IMG/VR virus record: IMGVR_UViG_3300031519_004866
Reading direction: 5' to 3' (one strand)
Length of the DNA: 64,000 bases
DNA from: a virus
The position numbers and the translations under genes were made by a program. The notes under the pieces are model-generated. The model was given only the letters and a program-made list of their open reading frames with translations. It did no database searches and had not been told where the DNA came from. Below are positions 33,290 through 62,782 of the stretch, piece by piece (the stretch's first letter is position 1; each line of letters opens with the position of its first letter).

Positions 33290-33820
33290 TTACATTAATC
33301 CTTCTTGTCCTAATAGTTCAACATTTTCATCTGTTAGCGGAATTTCAGTCTTGACCATTAATTCAAAGATCTCTTCTTCAAGTGCTTGTCGACTCATTGT
33401 AAGACTGCCAACTTCTGCTTTAGCTTGTTTAATTTGTTCTAATGATACAACACCTGTACTTACGCTTCCATCTACTTCGTCTAAATAGCCTTTGAGCGCA
33501 TCAGGGTCTGTTAGCGGAATTGCATCTGCAATCTGTTTTACCTGTGCAATCCTATTATCAACAAACCCAATCTTAGCTTGTGCAGTAGTAATACCACTAC
33601 CTGCCATAGCTTGTGAAACTAGTGCTGCAATATTGTAATAGGTTTGAAGTAGACGTTGTCTACGCTCGTCAGTTTTAAAAAGTGTTTCGTTAGCACTTTC
33701 AAGTGTTTTAATAATATCATCGTCTTTCTTAACTTCGTGTGAAAAGTTAAGGTGTACAGAATCAATATGTCGCTTAATACTATTCTGTAAATGTGTTGCT
33801 TTGCGAATGCTCAGTTCCAT
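33290..33820 (-). CDS. Hypothetical coiled-coil protein
   Basis: ATG 33820 with GAGGA SD; helical heptad pattern. Confidence 0.55.
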   Translation of the reverse strand: MELSIRKATHLQNSIKRHIDSVHLNFSHEVKKDDDIIKTLESANETLFKTDERRQRLLQTYYNIAALVSQAMAGSGITTAQAKIGFVDNRIAQVKQIADAIPLTDPDALKGYLDEVDGSVSTGVVSLEQIKQAKAEVGSLTMSRQALEEEIFELMVKTEIPLTDENVELLGQEGLM

Positions 33821-34103
33821 AATTATCCTCCTCGTTAATTGCTGCAATTAGTTCTTCTTCAGCATTGTTTACAAGACCATTATAATGATCTTCGGTATAC
33901 ATACCAAGTGCAATTTCTTTTATTGCAATTGTTGTAACTTTTTGGCCAGGATGAATTTCTACCCTAGGTGCAGATCCTTGCTGAAGTTCTCGAGCTCTTT
34001 TTGATGCCATCAAGCACAACAAATGTTGATTATCTACAGCATCGTGTGCTGCCTGATGTAGTGTATATGCTTCACGTTGTTTTTGGTCTGCTACAGTAGC
34101 CAT
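33780..34103 (-). CDS. rpoZ: RNA polymerase omega subunit-like protein
   Basis: DNQHLLCLMASKRARELQQGSAPRV...KVTTIAIKEIALG aligns with the omega core N(R/K)(F/Y)xLV.xAAxRARQL..G..P...K.T.IALxEI..G. Confidence 0.75.
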   Translation of the reverse strand: MATVADQKQREAYTLHQAAHDAVDNQHLLCLMASKRARELQQGSAPRVEIHPGQKVTTIAIKEIALGMYTEDHYNGLVNNAEEELIAAINEEDNYGTEHSQSNTFTE

Positions 34104-34134
34104 AATTTAATTCCTTTATATTTGTTACAATATC

Positions 34135-34163
34135 ATTGTAGCACGTTTTAAACAGTATGTCAA
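34135..34163 (-). promoter_or_regulatory. sigma70-type promoter for the rpoZ-like gene
   Basis: TTGACA (34163-34158), 17 nt, TACAAT (34140-34135). Confidence 0.7.
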
Positions 34164-34167
34164 CATA

Positions 34168-34779
34168 TCATTTAGCAATAAGTTTAGCATCCCATGCCAA
34201 AATAGTTCTACAACCTTGACCGCTCCATGGATACACTGTGTGCGGTATGTAACTTGGAAAAATAATCATTTTTAATGGCTGCGGTTTAAATCGCCATTGA
34301 TCAGTAAACACAAAATGTGCTGGATTTCTAATTACTGGTAATCTAAATTCAATATTTGCATCGCTTGGCCTAGCGTTTTCTTCTAGTAACGGTATGTCAA
34401 TATAAATGTTACCACTAATGTGTGCTTCATGACTGTGAAGTGCTTGGTAGTCCCCGCTTTCTTGTTTAATAGTCCATGCTGAAATTAATACAGGATCATA
34501 TCCATATAAGTCACCAACGCCACTAGTTTTAATAATGTTAGCAATATACTCTTTACAGCGATTCTCAACAAAGTCTTTTAGGTGTGTAGTATTCAACCCA
34601 AGTTCGTTTGGTAACAACTGTATTTGTTGCCCACCTCTAATGCTAATCTCAGGATTGCCTTCATCGTTCTTTTCGCTGTGTTCGTGAGCAGCATCTGTTA
34701 GTGCTTTTAGTTGTGAATAATCTCCTGACGGAACATCGTCAACTGCCATCACTGTTGGATTAAAATATGCAAACTTCAT
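34168..34779 (-). CDS. Putative 2OG-Fe(II) oxygenase (TIGR02466-like)
   Basis: AWTIKQESGDYQALHSH...ISGNIY...IIFPSYIPHTVYP. Confidence 0.8.
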   Translation of the reverse strand: MKFAYFNPTVMAVDDVPSGDYSQLKALTDAAHEHSEKNDEGNPEISIRGGQQIQLLPNELGLNTTHLKDFVENRCKEYIANIIKTSGVGDLYGYDPVLISAWTIKQESGDYQALHSHEAHISGNIYIDIPLLEENARPSDANIEFRLPVIRNPAHFVFTDQWRFKPQPLKMIIFPSYIPHTVYPWSGQGCRTILAWDAKLIAK

Positions 34780-35378
34780 TATACATTTAACCTTGTTAGA
34801 GTTTGACCGTTAATTTGACCTTTGACAAACGTGTTAAAACTTAGTGTAATTCTAGGTGTTGTTCCTGTGTACGACTGTACCAAGTGTTCCATGCTAGAAG
34901 GAAAAATTAGCATTGTACCAACTGTCGGTTCAACTGACCAACTTTTACTGTTCCACAAGTTTGGTTCTGTGATTTCAAACTCTAGTGTGTCGTATGCACC
35001 TGTAATGAAGCTAGTATGTCCGCCTTGCTCTGCGTCACCACTAAGGAATACAATTGCAGAAAGTACTGAGTTAGGATGCCAATGTCTATGATGTGTTTGA
35101 TTAGTTTCTGTTTTATTAAACCAAGACTCTGTAATGTAAATTTCTGTTACAGGGTCAACATGCATAACGTCATAAAAGTAATCGTGTATACCTTTCATAC
35201 ATTCTTCTTTAAGTTTCTTAAAGTTATCATCATCTAGCACTGTTTGACTAGTACTAATGTTGTTATGATAGTTAGGCACCCATTCAATTTTGCTTATGTC
35301 TGTACCTTCTAAATCTACTGTGGTACGTATAACTGTTTTAGCAAACAGTGGATATACTTCTAAGTTTTCGTTGTTCAT
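34779..35378 (-). CDS. Putative 2OG-Fe(II) oxygenase (TIGR02466-like)
   Basis: SWFN...HHRHWHPNSVLS...LIFPSSMEHLV...RITLSFN. Confidence 0.8.
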   Translation of the reverse strand: MNNENLEVYPLFAKTVIRTTVDLEGTDISKIEWVPNYHNNISTSQTVLDDDNFKKLKEECMKGIHDYFYDVMHVDPVTEIYITESWFNKTETNQTHHRHWHPNSVLSAIVFLSGDAEQGGHTSFITGAYDTLEFEITEPNLWNSKSWSVEPTVGTMLIFPSSMEHLVQSYTGTTPRITLSFNTFVKGQINGQTLTRLNV

Positions 35379-36019
35379 GTTCTTTCCTTTGGTATCATTA
35401 TCCTGTCTATGTTTCTTTCGCAGATATCTACAACTACATAATCTAATTTGTTTTCTAGATAGTCGATAGCATAATGTTGTTGCTGAAAGCGAAGTGCTTC
35501 GTCAGGCGCAGCTTCGCAAATAATTAGTGGTCTGTATTTCTCAATAGTTTTTAACGCTCCTTGGATGATATCATATTCAAAGCCATCAGTGTCTATTTTA
35601 ATGTAGTCAATATTAGGAAGATTAAAACTATCTAACGTATAAGTTTTAAGTTCGCTTTGGCCAAATGTTGTATCTAATCTTGGGTACTTGTTTTTAGTAT
35701 TTCCTAGACAACATGTAAAGTGCGTAACTTTTTCTTGACTTACATTTCTAGGAAATAGTTTACGCTTACGAGGATCAAAACAAAATACATGTTCAAAGTC
35801 TTCTTGTAGATAACGAGTAAATTCACCATCTCTACAACCAATGTCAACTGCATTGCGTCTTGAGTGTATGTGTGGAACACTCTTAACCCAAGTTAATTTA
35901 CAATGATGATTAGGAAACTCTTGAATGCCATCCGTGCTATGAAAGAAATCTTTATCATACCATGACGGATCATAGATGTACTGTTCTGGTAAAAATTCTG
36001 TTATAGATACTGGGTACAT
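35375..36019 (-). CDS. FkbM-family methyltransferase
   Basis: AVDIGCRDG, VFCFDP, YIKIDTDGFEYDIIQGA...RPLI. Confidence 0.8.
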   Translation of the reverse strand: MYPVSITEFLPEQYIYDPSWYDKDFFHSTDGIQEFPNHHCKLTWVKSVPHIHSRRNAVDIGCRDGEFTRYLQEDFEHVFCFDPRKRKLFPRNVSQEKVTHFTCCLGNTKNKYPRLDTTFGQSELKTYTLDSFNLPNIDYIKIDTDGFEYDIIQGALKTIEKYRPLIICEAAPDEALRFQQQHYAIDYLENKLDYVVVDICERNIDRIMIPKERT

Positions 36020-36037
36020 TATAATCCTTTTATTATA

Positions 36038-36113
36038 TGGTGCCGGCAGCAAGATTCGAACTCGCGACCTATGGTTTACAAAACCATTGCTCTACCAACT
36101 GAGCTATGCCGGC
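36038..36113 (-). tRNA. trnT: tRNA-Thr(UGU)
   Basis: GCCGGCA acceptor stem, D-arm AGCTCAGTTGGTAGAGC, anticodon arm ATGGT-TTTGTAA-ACCAT, GTTCGAATC, encoded CCA; 76 nt. Confidence 0.95.
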
Positions 36114-36793
36114 GTCTTGTTATTTAACTCCCATGCTGTTACATCAGCAGGAGAATTGATTTCTATTCCGTTAAAGTCCACACAACTGCAACCTATATCC
36201 CAGCCTGCTTTAAGCCAACGTAACTGTTCTAGTTTTTCAACCTGTTCTTCTTGTGTAACTTCCATGCCTTTATAGAATAATAACGGATTGCGTTTGTATC
36301 CGTAAATACCTAAATGCCAATGTCCGTATCCAGTTAGTCCTCTACCAAACCACAGAGCTTTGTCACCAGCACGTACCATCTTAACTGAGTTAGGATCGTC
36401 TTGCATTGCTTTAGGCATTTCTGCGTATACTGTGCTTATTTGATAATACTTGAGCCATTCTACACAACGTTCAATCATTTGTAGTGTTACATCAGGCATA
36501 TCGCCTTGTACATTAATAAATTGATCGTACTCATTAAAGAAGTCGTTTTGTACTGCGCCTGCAACACGTTCTGTGCCGTTGTCGTAATCTTTTTCATCAA
36601 TCCAGCAGTTATCCGGGCCAAACAAATTAAAGATACGCATGTCATCTGTTAGTACATATGTTGGTATCTTAGACGCAACACAAGCGTCATACACACGTTT
36701 AATCATAGGAACTCCATCTAACATAGCAAGAGGCTTTCCAGGGAAACGTGTGCTACCGTAACGTGCAGGTATTAGAATAGCAGTGTTAGGCAT
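36104..36793 (-). CDS. kdsB: 3-deoxy-manno-octulosonate cytidylyltransferase (CMP-Kdo synthetase)
   Basis: IPARYGSTRFPGKPL, NGTER, INVQGD, HLGIYGY, EKLEQLRWL. Confidence 0.92.
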   Translation of the reverse strand: MPNTAILIPARYGSTRFPGKPLAMLDGVPMIKRVYDACVASKIPTYVLTDDMRIFNLFGPDNCWIDEKDYDNGTERVAGAVQNDFFNEYDQFINVQGDMPDVTLQMIERCVEWLKYYQISTVYAEMPKAMQDDPNSVKMVRAGDKALWFGRGLTGYGHWHLGIYGYKRNPLLFYKGMEVTQEEQVEKLEQLRWLKAGWDIGCSCVDFNGIEINSPADVTAWELNNKTPA

Positions 36794-37064
36794 TAACTTC
36801 ACCTACTGTAACTACATTATCCCAACGAAAGCTGCGCCAGCCTTTTGCATTGATATCCCAAACAATTTGTACTTCTGGATTAATAGCTCTTATTTTCTTT
36901 AGTGATGCTGGGTCTTGCTTAGTTGCAGCAGGAACAACACCTTCTTTAAGTGTACAAGTCATTACTCGTTTGTCACCATTAATCTTAGTAAATGTTACTA
37001 CAACTTCTTCTTTTAAAAGTTTAGGAACTGTTTGTTCTTTTAGTTCTTTAGCTTGGTCTTTCAT
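36786..37064 (-). CDS. SH3-like beta-barrel (WYL_2/DUF2693-like) phage protein
   Basis: VVTFTKINGDKRVMTCTL...WDINAKGWRSFRWD. Confidence 0.75.
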   Translation of the reverse strand: MKDQAKELKEQTVPKLLKEEVVVTFTKINGDKRVMTCTLKEGVVPAATKQDPASLKKIRAINPEVQIVWDINAKGWRSFRWDNVVTVGEVNA

Positions 37065-37074
37065 AAGTTCTCCT

Positions 37075-37242
37075 CTACCATAACCCTATAGTTTTTCCGT
37101 TTCCAATAATAATGAAAAAGCAGGTTACGATGTGTATGATCCACCAAAAGGTTCGTACCACCGCAACCATGTCAGCTTGACTATCAGTCTCGCCTACTTT
37201 TTCACCCAGACTTTTAGCCCAGATTCTCCACACCTTCTTCAT
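37075..37242 (-). CDS. Small membrane protein (55 aa)
   Basis: Manual translation MKKVWRIWAKSLGEKVGETDSQADMVAVVRTFWWIIHIVTCFFIIIGNG...; ATGA overlap with the HD gene stop; GGAG SD. Confidence 0.7.
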   Translation of the reverse strand: MKKVWRIWAKSLGEKVGETDSQADMVAVVRTFWWIIHIVTCFFIIIGNGKTIGLW

Positions 37243-37763
37243 ACATCTCCTGTGATGTACTTGTTAACAATATCAAATGCTTTTGCTCTGAGACTTGCAT
37301 CTCCTTTGTCCATAACATCTAACAATAATTTCTTTTCTTGCATAAACACTTTGGCAAAGCTAGGATCATGTTTGATGATACTAGATGAGTTAGCAATTAA
37401 ATCGGCGTACTTGATAGTCTGCGCATCAGCAGAAGCAGCAGCAGAGTGATCTCTATCTTTTGCTTTTCTTACAGCTCTATTACCGTCTTCTGGTGTAGAG
37501 ATATCTGTAAGATCTGATACAAGTGCAGCAACCTTTTCGCCAAATGCTTCTGTAATAAGCTCGATGCTTGTAGGAGTATCCTCAACTACATCGTGCAATA
37601 CAGCAGCCATTAACATTTCAGTCGAGTGGGGAACAGTCCGTACAATACCCATAACTTCTAATGGGTGACCGATGTACGGAGCACCAGTGTACTTGCGCTT
37701 TTGCCCTGTGTGAGCAACAGTAGCAAGATGAATAGCTCTGTCTAATGGGCGCATAATGCTCAT
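37239..37763 (-). CDS. Stand-alone HD-domain hydrolase (small alarmone hydrolase / Mesh1-like)
   Basis: AHTGQKRK..GAPYIGHP, AAVLHDVVEDT, IKYADLIAN: RelA/SpoT hydrolase-domain motifs with no synthetase domain. Confidence 0.85.
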   Translation of the reverse strand: MSIMRPLDRAIHLATVAHTGQKRKYTGAPYIGHPLEVMGIVRTVPHSTEMLMAAVLHDVVEDTPTSIELITEAFGEKVAALVSDLTDISTPEDGNRAVRKAKDRDHSAAASADAQTIKYADLIANSSSIIKHDPSFAKVFMQEKKLLLDVMDKGDASLRAKAFDIVNKYITGDV

Positions 37764-37795: not shown

Positions 37796-37824
37796 ATTAT
37801 ACAATCTATCAACTAGAATGTCAA
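37796..37824 (-). promoter_or_regulatory. sigma70-type promoter for the HD hydrolase
   Basis: TTGACA (37824-37819), 17 nt, TATAAT (37801-37796). Confidence 0.8.
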
Positions 37825-38359: not shown

Positions 38360-38917
38360 TTATAGGATATGATCCGCAATTTTAAGTTTGATCAGATCTT
38401 TTGCGGTGTAATACTGATCACTTGGGCTATCAAAATATTCTTTAACTTTTGCTAAACTATATCCTGTAGCGTCTCTTAGAATGTGTAAACTACGATACTC
38501 GCAGTTATTATTTTCAATCATAGCTGACTTCATGTCGTGCAACTTTGATTCTATATGATCTGAGTGTTGATGATTCATAATACCTGTGTTCTTACCAATG
38601 TATCTATGTCCTTGTTCACCACTTGCAAATATTAAAAACCCTGCACTCATAACAGCACCAACACCGTATGTTGCAATGTTATGCCTACTTTGTTTCATAA
38701 TATCAATAAGTGCAAATGCTTCATATACTTCGCCACCATAGGTGTTAATATACAGTTTTAGAGTACGTTTTGGTTTAATCTTTAAGTTTGCACTTAGTAT
38801 CCATTTGATTGCTGGTGCTACTGTTTCAGCACTAATGTCTCCGTTGAGATAGAAAATATCGTTGTCTACTAGACTTTTGTCTATAGCGTCTGATGCTGTC
38901 CAGTTGTCATATTGCAT
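38360..38917 (-). CDS. ClpP-like protease subunit
   Basis: IFYLNGDI, LYINTYGGEV, VMSAG (nucleophile Ser), IMNHQ (His), YYTAKD. Confidence 0.85.
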   Translation of the reverse strand: MQYDNWTASDAIDKSLVDNDIFYLNGDISAETVAPAIKWILSANLKIKPKRTLKLYINTYGGEVYEAFALIDIMKQSRHNIATYGVGAVMSAGFLIFASGEQGHRYIGKNTGIMNHQHSDHIESKLHDMKSAMIENNNCEYRSLHILRDATGYSLAKVKEYFDSPSDQYYTAKDLIKLKIADHIL

Positions 38918-50694: not shown

Positions 50695-51000
50695 TTATTG
50701 TTCTTCTATAGTAACTCTAAGTGGAGATCCAAATTTTCTAGCAATTTTAGTTGATTGCAATGCTCTTTCTTCTGCAATTTCAAACGGATATGGTCCCATA
50801 GCAGCAGCACCAAAATTGTGTATTTCTAGTGTTTTCTTTTTTGCTTGTTCTTTTTCCATTTTAAATACACTAAGAAGAATATCAATTACTAATTCCATAG
50901 GTGTTACATCATCGTTAAGGAATACTACGGTCCACAATCGAGGCATCTCTACATCAATTTCAACTCGTTCATCAATAATTGCGTCTGTCTTATTACTCAT
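50695..51000 (-). CDS. clpS: N-degron adaptor ClpS
   Basis: VVFLNDDVTPMELV, LEIHNFG.A, EIAEE, PLRVTIE. Confidence 0.9.
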   Translation of the reverse strand: MSNKTDAIIDERVEIDVEMPRLWTVVFLNDDVTPMELVIDILLSVFKMEKEQAKKKTLEIHNFGAAAMGPYPFEIAEERALQSTKIARKFGSPLRVTIEEQ

Positions 51001-51023
51001 TATTTCCCTCTCTTAACACTCTT

Positions 51024-51051
51024 AAAAGCGGGGGAGGTATTTCACTCCCCC
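51024..51051 (-). terminator. Intrinsic terminator after hsp20
   Basis: GGGGGAG-8 nt-CTCCCCC stem followed by GCTTTT. Confidence 0.7.
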
Positions 51052-51062
51052 TAGACACGATG

Positions 51063-51515
51063 TTACTTGCCTTCGATAGTAAGACCATCTTTGATCTTAA
51101 TTGTTTTAGGTTTTAATGCTTCTGGAACTTCACGCTTTAGGTGTACATTAAGCATACCTAGTTCTAGTGTTGCGCCTTCAACATTAACATGGTCAGCAAG
51201 TGTAAACTCTCTGCGGAAGTTACGTCCGCCGATACCCTTGTGTAGGTAGTTTACATCTTCGTCTCCTTTCGGAGCAGTTCCTTCAATCTTTAGTTGATCA
51301 CCATCTTTGGTAATCTCAAGATTGTCCATACTAAAGCCAGCCACAGCGACTGAGATCATATACTCGTCTTCGTTGACTTGTGCGATGTTGTATGGAGGGT
51401 AACCATTTCCATTTGGACTATTTGCAAAGCCTCTTTCGAGTTCATTGAATAGTCTGTCAAAGCCGATTGTAGCTCTGTGGAATTGTGGTAGGTCTAGAGT
51501 TGTTATTCTTGTCAT
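51063..51515 (-). CDS. Small heat-shock protein (Hsp20/IbpA family)
   Basis: IGFDRLF, YPPYNI, AVAGF, YLHKGIGGRNFRREFTLAD, GMLNVHL. Confidence 0.95.
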   Translation of the reverse strand: MTRITTLDLPQFHRATIGFDRLFNELERGFANSPNGNGYPPYNIAQVNEDEYMISVAVAGFSMDNLEITKDGDQLKIEGTAPKGDEDVNYLHKGIGGRNFRREFTLADHVNVEGATLELGMLNVHLKREVPEALKPKTIKIKDGLTIEGK

Positions 51516-51520
51516 AGTTT

Positions 51521-51539
51521 TCTCCTTTATTAAGCAAGA
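51521..51539 (-). promoter_or_regulatory. ROSE-like RNA thermometer hairpin over the hsp20 SD
   Basis: UCUUGCU-UAAUAA-AGGAGA: UUGCU motif pairs with the SD leaving a bulged G; two upstream hairpins; TAAATA at 51607-51602. Confidence 0.7.
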
Positions 51540-51600
51540 TTAAATTTAGGATCCTTTCGGCATCCCGTTAAATGTACTCCGGTTCGTCCTTTGTACACAT

Positions 51601-52761
51601 TTATTTATCATTTGACGCATACACACTATTAAATTGTTGAGTACAACGTACAAATGTTGTGCAACGCATAAGGTGTTTTAACCTTAATGCACCTGCGTAT
51701 GTGCAAGTACTACGCAATCCGCCTAGTAAATCTTGCACTGTACGTGCTACTTCTCCCCTGAAAGGAACAAGTATTTCACGTCCTTCTGATGAACGATAGT
51801 CTTTAAGTCCACCAAAATGCTTTGTGTTTGCTGCATCACTACTCATACCGTAGAACTGCACAAACTGCTTTTCTTCAATTTTTAGTTTAATTTCGCCGAC
51901 ATCTGTATCACCAACCATATATCCTGAGGGCAAAACTTCATTGGTTTGATAGCGTTTGGTAATTACTTCACCACCGCCTTCGTCGTGTCCTGCCAGCATA
52001 CCGCCAAGCATCACAAAGTCTGCTCCGCCTGCAAATGCTTTGGCTACATCACCAGGACAAGTACAACCTCCATCAGCAATAATATGGCCTCCGAGACCGT
52101 GAGCAGCATCAGCACATTCAATAACTGCTGAGAGTTGAGGATACCCAACACCTGTTTGTATACGTGTTGTGCATACACTACCAGGGCCAATGCCCACTTT
52201 AACAATATCTGCTCCAGCAAGAATAAGTTCCTCCGTCATTTCGCCTGTAACTACATTACCTGCTATAATTACAATGTCTGGATATTGTGTTCTAAACTCT
52301 GCAACAACATCTCTAAAGCGACTACTATAACCGTTTGCTACATCAATACAAACATACTTCAATCGATCGTTAACTTGTTCGTATACCATTCTAAATTTTT
52401 TATGATCGTCATCTGTAATACCAATGCTCATAGCAACATATTCTGTCCTTGCAGGATCATGTGATCTGTCATCTTGATCAAAGTAATCTACAAGTTCCTT
52501 GATACTATATGTTTTAACCAAGCAAGTAAAAATCCCGCCTTCTGCAAGTTTGTCTGCCATTTCAAATGTACCAACACCATCCATGTTACTTGCCATAATA
52601 GGTATGCCACGATAATGTCTATGCATTGGACGTGGTCCTTTGTAGTTACGGAAAGTGAACCCACGTTCTAGATCTACATCCTTGCGTGAACCTAGTGTGC
52701 TACGTTTAGGACGTATCAATACATCCTTATAATCTAACTTCATATCTTCTTCGATCCGCAT
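51601..52761 (-). CDS. guaC: GMP reductase
   Basis: [47 protein letters not shown]. Confidence 0.95.
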
Positions 52762-53382: not shown

Positions 53383-53411
53383 ATTATAACAGGGAGTTAT
53401 AGACATGTCAA
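53383..53411 (-). promoter_or_regulatory. sigma70-type promoter for the exonuclease
   Basis: TTGACA (53411-53406), 17 nt, TATAAT (53388-53383). Confidence 0.75.
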
Positions 53412-53425
53412 CCTTTAAGTTGAAA

Positions 53426-53743
53426 CTATTTGCGTCTTGGTTGCTTTTGTGGTCCTAGATCAAGTTCACGTTCTTTTCTTTTCCAACGTGCCTTTGCCGC
53501 CGCTTTAGCGATCTTACGTTTTTCACTAGGCTTAGTGTAGTGCTGACGTTCACGGATTTCATTAAACAATCCGTCACGTTCAATTTTTTTCTTTAACCTA
53601 CGGAGAGCCTTATTGACATCTTCACCGTCTCTTACAGTTACCGCCAAGCCCTCTGGATCAGGTGTAAACTGTCTCTTAGGTTTTTGAAATCTATCTCTGT
53701 TAGTATTAGTATGATGGTGTTTTGTGGTTCTATTATATGCCAT
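53426..53743 (-). CDS. rpsU: 30S ribosomal protein bS21 with N-terminal extension
   Basis: VTVRDGEDVNKALRRLKKK...EIRERQHYTKPSEKRK. Confidence 0.9.
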   Translation of the reverse strand: MAYNRTTKHHHTNTNRDRFQKPKRQFTPDPEGLAVTVRDGEDVNKALRRLKKKIERDGLFNEIRERQHYTKPSEKRKIAKAAAKARWKRKERELDLGPQKQPRRK

Positions 53744-54116
53744 AAGTGTTTATTGCTATCTCCAGTATGTTGTTAATTTGTTCGATATTCATAATCTCAT
53801 TTTTGTTTGCTAATTGCAAACCAGTTTGTCCAAAATAGTAGCTGTTCTGCTGTGCCAGTAAATATCCAAACATTGTTTGATCTTGTGAATGTGCATTACT
53901 TATAATTATACTACTTTTATGTTTTTTGTCAACCACCCATTCACACTCTTGGCCGCTTTTGGCAACATAAATTATAATGTTTGGAAGAGAGTCGATGTTA
54001 GATAATACATCAGATATTAGTTGGGATTGTTCTGGAGCTAGATCGTATGTAAGTATTCTTAATGCGTCTAACTGTATATCATCCGGTGGCGTAATGATAT
54101 TAATTGTGTTATTCAT
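53733..54116 (-). CDS. Hypothetical protein
   Basis: 127 aa; ITPPD motif; coupled to rpsU. Confidence 0.55.
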   Translation of the reverse strand: MNNTINIITPPDDIQLDALRILTYDLAPEQSQLISDVLSNIDSLPNIIIYVAKSGQECEWVVDKKHKSSIIISNAHSQDQTMFGYLLAQQNSYYFGQTGLQLANKNEIMNIEQINNILEIAINTYGI

Positions 54117-61981: not shown

Positions 61982-62056
61982 TGGCATGCGAGCAGGGATT
62001 CGAACCCCGACTAACGGTTTTGGAGACCGCTGTGCTACCATTAACACCACTCACAT
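61982..62056 (-). tRNA. trnW: tRNA-Trp(CCA)
   Basis: ATGTGAG/CTCGCAT acceptor stem, anticodon arm GCGGT-CTCCAAA-ACCGT, GGTTCGAATCC, discriminator G, encoded CCA. Confidence 0.92.
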
Positions 62057-62430: not shown

Positions 62431-62717
62431 AAGTGCAACTTTTCTGTTGCCAGGTAAGTTGCCAACCCCTACGTGCTTAGTTAGACTAAGCCGCTAATGC
62501 CATTCCTGGCGCTGTATTTGCGTTTGCATTTACAAAGTTTGTTCGCGGTAACGGCGCTTACATCCCGGTAACTCCACTAACTCTATTAAACACCAGTCGA
62601 TCCTGTGTCGCCCCCATCAAAAATACATTCACAGTTTAATAGCAGAATGTATTTTTGGTGGAGGCGTCGGGTACTGCCCCCGAGTCCTGTATGCCGTTTG
62701 AATTGCTTCAACGTTAC
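62431..62717 (-). ncRNA. ssrA: Permuted two-piece tmRNA (alphaproteobacterial type)
   Basis: Acceptor piece ends CGCCTCCACCA at 62656, then a hairpin spacer, then coding piece starting GGGGGCG at 62615; G3.U70 pair; tag ORF 62527-62486 = ANANTAPGMALAA*; outer ends approximate. Confidence 0.9.
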
Positions 62718-62759
62718 GATAGTATTTATAATATAACATCAAGCGAGCAACAAGTCAAG

Positions 62760-62782
62760 AAAAAAGGGCCGAAGCCCTTTTT
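62760..62782. terminator. Bidirectional intrinsic terminator
   Basis: AAAAAAGGGC-CGAA-GCCCTTTTT; UUCG tetraloop on the minus strand, downstream of cspA. Confidence 0.8.

Follow-up and report, generated by a model that had tools for sequence, protein, structure and literature searches.

The N-terminal residues of omega (RpoZ), a subunit of RNA polymerase (RNAP), form part of site 1 for the alarmone guanosine tetraphosphate (ppGpp) in Escherichia coli, wherein Ala2 and Arg3 touch the 5'-diphosphate of ppGpp (PMC13192712). In PMC6416229, which cites Hauryliuk 2015, the N-terminal Met-Ala-Arg (MAR) motif of omega serves as a predictor of ppGpp binding. Small alarmone hydrolases (SAHs) have been described from phages: the SAHs of Salmonella phage SSU5 (PaSpo) and of PVP-SE1 neutralized all five toxic small alarmone synthetase (toxSAS) toxins tested (PMC7229694), and the counter-defense genes of jumbo phages include HD-alarmone phosphodiesterases (PMC7824862). 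Here, we describe a stretch of viral DNA of 64,000 nucleotides (IMG/VR record IMGVR_UViG_3300031519_004866; hereafter, the window) that encodes on its minus strand both an omega-like protein and a stand-alone RelA/SpoT-type HD hydrolase.

The original prediction for this locus, which drew on the role of the omega N-terminus in ppGpp site 1 of E. coli (a role that the Ala2 and Arg3 contacts bear out), was that the two genes form a two-part module directed against the stringent response. The explanation towards which we lean is a different one, namely that these are two independent early host-takeover genes, a phage omega with a 176-residue partner protein and a SAH of the PaSpo type. While phage alarmone hydrolases are already known, the phage omega family and its conserved helical partner are new here, and no description of a phage-encoded omega was found in the literature searched.

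Identity and Fold of the Omega Homolog

The open reading frame (ORF) at positions 33780-34103(-) encodes 107 residues, with an N-terminus that reads MATVADQKQREAYTLHQ and an acidic C-terminal tail. The earlier description of this protein as RpoZ-like is upheld by domain searches, in which the protein scores above the cut-offs of both Pfam PF01192 (RNA_pol_Rpb6; E = 1.6e-9, 38 bits, cut-off 26) and NCBIfam TIGR00690 (rpoZ equivalog; 28.8 bits, cut-off 23.6). The matches of a phmmer search of the PDB are exclusively RNAP omega chains, with the best match to Pseudomonas 7f0r_E (2.3e-6) and a match to the E. coli protein at 1.6e-3. An AlphaFold2 (AF2) model computed from 30 homologs shows a predicted local distance difference test (pLDDT) score of 76 overall and 84-93 at residues 11-70, and all of the top 50 Foldseek matches of this model in the PDB (50/50) are omega chains (probability 1.00, template modeling (TM) score by target 0.6-0.8). 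Furthermore, residues A33, R36, R38, G43, E63, and G67, located in the beta-prime-binding helices, are unchanged in 30 of the 30 phage and cellular omegas aligned. Judged by sequence and predicted fold, this ORF is a true RpoZ homolog.

The N-terminus of the protein is extended and lacks the MAR start, as had been noticed. In HMMER alignments, residues 17-85 of the window omega pair with residues 7-75 of Vibrio cholerae omega (9gdo_E), and residues 17-71 pair with residues 7-61 of the E. coli omega chains. Because residue 17 aligns with residue 7, the extension is approximately 10 residues long (9-10 extra residues), and Ala2/Arg3 of E. coli are equivalent to Ala12/Tyr13 of the window protein, such that there is no free N-terminal MAR (Ala2-Arg3) and Tyr13 is found at the Arg3 position. 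The gammaproteobacterial cellular omegas extracted for comparison all start with MAR[VI]TVEDC. A wrong start codon was considered as the cause of the extension and rejected: a ribosome-binding site (RBS) is present at the ATG, the extension is under purifying selection, and the next Met does not occur before residue 32, so that no alternative start restores MAR.

Within the window clade (loci L001, L003, L004, and L007), the motif DDKQ.E.YGY.Q is kept in the extension, and the ratio of nonsynonymous to synonymous substitution rates ranges from 0.15 to 0.31 over residues 2-20 and from 0.03 to 0.27 over the core. AF2 predicts a single helix at residues 4-23. Since the omegas of this clade have no free Ala2-Arg3 end, the rebuilt N-terminus should weaken or abolish ppGpp site 1.

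Omega Family and Phylogeny

A profile scan identified 31 IMG/VR loci that belong to the phage omega family. The N-termini at these loci fall into groups consisting of the window type, MARVFVE, MARISAEE/MARITSQK, MT[SQ]RLTSE, MSRLSSE, MKEAKQVSVEG, and longer extensions. The MARVFVE omegas (metagenome proteins P0007, P0010, and P0011) were first taken as the closest cellular-looking sequences, and are found on phage contigs that are collinear with the window. A sister clade (L026 and L027) shares the synteny of the window and the same HD gene, and its omega starts with MARVFVE. In a maximum-likelihood tree that was built without alphaproteobacterial omegas, the window clade is supported at 99/99 and is nested in a clade with the MARVFVE omegas at 99/96; its nearest neighbor is P0008, which starts with MSV. 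The nesting of the window clade with the MARVFVE phage omegas indicates that the loss of MAR was derived within a phage lineage. As the sister phage clade retains MAR, a "ppGpp-blind" omega would at most be a derived state of the window clade. More distantly, the omega-bearing contig of locus L045 encodes a T4 Gp23 capsid protein (327 bits).

A scan of genome contigs returned only L007 and one gammaproteobacterial rpoZ-spoT locus (L008). L007 (NYWG01000195.1, 9.3 kb) was binned in a Verrucomicrobiales metagenome-assembled genome (MAG) and is collinear with the window over omega, the 2-oxoglutarate (2OG) oxygenases, the cytidylyltransferase, and a portion of the HD gene; it probably represents phage DNA that was mis-binned. 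No close cellular source of the window omega was found among 400 gammaproteobacterial genomes, the best match being 44% identical (39 bits); this tally includes four unpublished genomes (G298, G143, G310, and G041), none of which is among the quoted top matches. A tblastn search of phage records with omega gave two matches only, CAKLQF02 and CAKLQH02 ("Acinetobacter phage MD-2021a"). With contigs as long as 240 kb that bear rpoZ, cyaA, and tRNA genes, these two records look like bacterial DNA filed as phage.

The 176-Residue Partner Protein

Directly downstream of omega is a gene (33290-33820(-)) for an all-helical protein of 176 residues with no assigned function. The ATG of this gene (33820) and its AGGAG RBS fall within the last 41 nucleotides of omega, and this overlap accounts for the low synonymous divergence of the omega tail. 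A homolog of the 176-residue protein directly follows omega in approximately 20 of the 31 loci. Neither Pfam nor NCBIfam has a family that covers the protein, and its sole PHROG match, to phrog_37361 (of unknown function), is weak. Its AF2 model (pLDDT 93) is all-helical, with structural relatives (TM 0.7-0.9) in the Caulobacter phage CcrColossus, Vibrio phage Vp_R1, Erwinia phage pEa_SNUABM_47, Catovirus, and Yasminevirus, all of them uncharacterized; the sole notable PDB neighbor is 3kdq, which has no known function.

The HD Hydrolase

The second gene (37239-37763(-)) encodes a 174-residue protein that is a predicted stand-alone RelA/SpoT-type HD hydrolase similar to PaSpo. The claim that this protein carries RelA/SpoT hydrolase motifs and no synthetase was confirmed, as a domain scan identified PF13328 (HD_4, 63.9 bits) and PF01966 (HD, 25.6 bits) and no synthetase domain, and the motifs GQ.RK..G.PY, HP, LHDVVEDT, and ADL..N are intact when aligned to Rel and SAH structures. 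The protein also matches phrog_990 ("metal-dependent phosphohydrolase"; 4.5e-40). Its best sequence matches in the PDB are the hydrolase domains of Rel/RelA together with stand-alone SAHs, among them Lmo0812 and MESH1, and it shares 45% identity over 154 residues with SSU5 gp099 (PaSpo; E = 3e-41). The GQ.RK motif contains Arg-Lys in the window protein and Asp-Lys in the ppApp-specific Aph1, and the Arg-Lys pair would fit an enzyme capable of acting on (p)ppGpp.

Two further possibilities for this gene were examined. A captured SpoT fragment that travels with rpoZ was rejected, as the protein is closer to the phage PaSpo than to E. coli SpoT (41% identity over 85 residues). A capsid-targeting leader of the T4 type ahead of the HD domain is absent by alignment with SSU5 PaSpo, in which residue 4 of the window protein pairs with residue 1 of PaSpo and leaves no room for an N-terminal leader; the promoter of the gene is of the early type. 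The HD gene is immediately followed by an ORF of 55 residues with one hydrophobic segment (37075-37242(-)); the start of this ORF overlaps the HD stop, and its product has no family match.

Promoters and Gene Arrangement

Both genes lie behind near-consensus sigma70 promoters, as had been proposed. The omega promoter (34135-34163(-)) has the sequence TTGACA-17-TACAAT with an extended TG and ends 32 nucleotides before the omega start, while the HD promoter (37796-37824(-)) is a 12/12 match to consensus (TTGACA-17-TATAAT) that ends 33 nucleotides before the HD start. The 64-kb window contains 7 matches to the pattern TTGACA-N16-18-TAYAAT, compared with 0.27 expected, and none of 100 shuffled sequences reaches 7. 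On the strength of this enrichment, the TTGACA-type sites are real early-type sigma70 promoters. A related element, TTGACT-17-TATA[AC]T, is kept approximately 34 nucleotides upstream of omega in all four loci of the window clade. The RBSs of omega and HD (AAGGA and AGGAG) are located 7-9 nucleotides ahead of the ATG codons.

The two genes therefore have their own promoters and belong to separate transcription units, and they are neither adjacent nor co-transcribed. The approximately 3 kb between them contains five protein genes, encoding two 2OG oxygenases, a methyltransferase, a cytidylyltransferase, and a WYL_2 protein, along with a tRNA-Thr gene. The methyltransferase is of the FkbM type (35375-36113 region, (-)); its listed TTG start at 36052 overlaps tRNA-Thr (36038-36113), and translation more likely begins at the ATG of codon 12.

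A survey of co-occurrence found omega and HD together only in the window clade and its sister clade (L026 and L027). Neither gene is present in the complete genomes of Melnitz and HTVC008M, two relatives of the phage described below. No HD_4 domain was found in ten other omega-bearing phage contigs (55-262 kb, all incomplete; a positive control was run), and 279 phage records are matched by the HD protein and not by omega, indicating that SAHs are common in phages without omega. A module is unsupported because the two genes are separate units 3 kb apart, because of these ten omega contigs, and because of the HD-only records. In sum, the omega homolog, the HD enzyme, and the early promoters of the original prediction stand, while the dedicated module does not. 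We conclude that omega and HD are two independent early takeover genes, each plausible alone, that could act on the same pathway.

Interpretation and Alternatives

Sigma factors, anti-sigmas, ADP-ribosylation, and small binding proteins are known means by which phages retune host RNAP. In the literature searched, no RNAP core subunit encoded by a phage was found. If the two genes act as independent takeover functions, the phage omega would most likely take the place of omega on the beta-prime subunit of the host, such that the borrowed RNAP gains a phage-tuned peripheral part, and omega would be made together with the overlapping helical protein. In the window clade, the N-terminus has been rebuilt into a longer, conserved, and probably helical segment with no free Ala2-Arg3, through which ppGpp site 1 should be weakened or lost. 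The HD enzyme would degrade 3'-pyrophosphates of the (p)ppGpp or (p)ppApp type, which could lower the stringent signal, disarm toxSAS-type defenses, or both.

Several points weigh against this account. The two clades that carry both omega and HD are sisters, and their shared gene content may go back to one event. Additionally, ppGpp-blindness is not a general reason for phages to carry omega, since the sister omegas keep MAR, and the N-terminus of the window omega could equally be an adaptor surface. Finally, the HD enzyme could act chiefly on defense toxins rather than on the stringent response.

The last of these points is the core of the best-surviving alternative, in which the HD enzyme is mainly a counter-defense factor against toxSAS- or CapRel-type toxins that make alarmones or pyrophosphorylate tRNA, is unrelated to the control of transcription, and merely shares an early accessory region with omega. 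We regard this as a serious possibility, though not the leading one. It is consistent with the neutralization of every toxSAS tested by the SSU5 and PVP-SE1 enzymes, with the presence of HD-alarmone phosphodiesterases in the counter-defense lists of jumbo phages (PMC7824862), and with the wide distribution of the HD family in unrelated phages. However, the link to toxSAS comes from homologs and not from the host, and roles in counter-defense and in transcription are compatible with one another.

It is less probable, though still a possibility to be taken into account, that omega serves as an adaptor or spare part without contributing to ppGpp sensing, and that it either stabilizes or assembles host RNAP or uses its N-terminus and acidic tail to recruit a phage factor, perhaps the 176-residue protein. 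The overlapping omega/176-residue pair is kept across clades with very different N-termini, many phage omegas keep MAR, and the phage also carries bS21 and ClpS, all of which would fit such a role. A parallel is offered by the regulator GafA of the Rhodobacter capsulatus gene transfer agent (RcGTA), which works through omega (PMC9638019). In contrast, the fold of the 176-residue protein is also found in CcrColossus, Vp_R1, and Catovirus, which are not known to carry omega, and the pairing may consequently be plain synteny. Moreover, the sampled cellular omegas all start with MAR while the phage N-termini vary, which suggests an altered constraint at the ppGpp end of the protein.

A true two-pronged anti-stringent module, in which omega blinds RNAP site 1, the hydrolase clears the signal, and the two genes are co-selected, is unlikely. 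The early promoters of both genes, their shared presence in the window clade and L026/L027 and shared absence from Melnitz and HTVC008M, the loss of MAR in the window clade, and the fact that rpoZ and spoT are operon neighbors in bacteria (for example, in L008) would all fit such a module. However, the separate promoters and the unrelated genes between omega and HD speak against it, as do the combination in L026/L027 of this HD gene with an omega that keeps MAR, the lack of HD_4 in the ten omega contigs, and the contrast between 279 HD-matched records and the two contaminated omega records. The HD protein is also nearer to the phage PaSpo than to SpoT. An extended form of the idea, in which the partly acidic, conserved N-terminal helix of omega would block or remove ppGpp site 1 while the hydrolase removes the ligand in a two-layer shut-off, and in which phage omegas would constitute an undescribed class of RNAP-retuning subunits, is similarly doubtful.

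Recent capture of a host gene, or an assembly or binning contaminant with no phage function, is effectively refuted despite the normally cellular nature of omega and the L007 relative in a bacterial MAG, as L007 is itself collinear phage DNA, the phage synteny is conserved on many viral contigs, the best cellular omega of 400 genomes is only 44% identical, the window clade is supported within the phage omegas (99/96), and the gene is under purifying selection behind its own phage-type promoter.

Returning to the reading of two independent takeover genes, if the phage omega enters host RNAP, its natural N-terminal variants (MAR-keeping, Arg-less, and extended) would offer a means to probe ppGpp site 1 and omega in vivo, abundant marine bacteria included. 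The hydrolase, in turn, would add a marine representative to the known counter-alarmone enzymes.

Genome Context and Likely Host

The window derives from an uncultured marine T4-like myophage that is pelagimyophage-like and kin to Methylophilales phage Melnitz and Pelagibacter phage HTVC008M, both of which are Kyanoviridae. A CHASE2-type cyclase encoded near omega is 69% identical to the Melnitz copy and 48% identical to the HTVC008M copy. A megablast comparison of the region with 50,697 phage records returned tRNA matches only. The window contains a permuted alpha-type transfer-messenger RNA (tmRNA; 62432-62762(-); RF01849, 142 bits) with the ARAGORN tag ANANTAPGMALAA, and a tRNA-Trp gene (61982-62056). 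As the tmRNA is of the alpha type, the host is probably an alphaproteobacterium.

Other genes for host-like functions include that of ribosomal protein bS21 (53426-53743(-); PF01165, 65.7 bits), which is located near two near-perfect sigma70 promoters (53383-53411 and 53905-53932). The window also encodes a ClpS adaptor, Hsp20, an enzyme of the inosine monophosphate dehydrogenase (IMPDH)/guanosine monophosphate (GMP)-reductase type, and a ClpP-like protease (50695-52761 and 38360-38917, (-)), which together with the tmRNA make up a phage-borne set for proteostasis and nucleotide metabolism.

Comparison with Known Systems

In virus-encoded bS21 (Mizuno et al. 2019, PMC6375957), too, a phage has its own version of a small, peripheral component of a host core machine, and the window carries both bS21 and omega. 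The machine is the ribosome in that case and RNAP in this one, and the comparison is one of analogy only.

The hydrolase resembles the described phage SAHs, namely SSU5 PaSpo and PVP-SE1 PbcSpo (Jimmy et al. 2020) and the HD enzymes of jumbo phages (Iyer et al. 2021), in that it is a stand-alone protein of a lytic phage with a single HD_4 domain and intact HD/ED/N residues. It differs in its origin from a marine T4-like phage, and it has no capsid-targeting leader. In the bacterial gmk-rpoZ-spoT operon, too, omega and a hydrolase domain of the SpoT type are encoded in one neighborhood. In contrast to this operon, the phage genes are separated by 3 kb, each with its own promoter, and the phage hydrolase is of the PaSpo type rather than a truncated SpoT.

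The closest comparison for the phage omega is that of the Proteobacteria, as exemplified by E. coli omega in the RNAP-ppGpp structure 4jk1 and by Pseudomonas 7f0r_E, with which it has in common its domain, predicted fold, and invariant core residues. The proteins are close in size, and some cellular omegas also possess an acidic C-terminal tail. The window omega shares 31-44% identity with the cellular or cellular-type omegas that were aligned or searched. Unlike its cellular counterparts, the window copy comes from a phage gene that follows an early promoter, its 3' end is overlapped by a phage gene, and its N-terminus is longer by 9-10 residues, with MAR replaced and an invariant Tyr at the position of Arg3.

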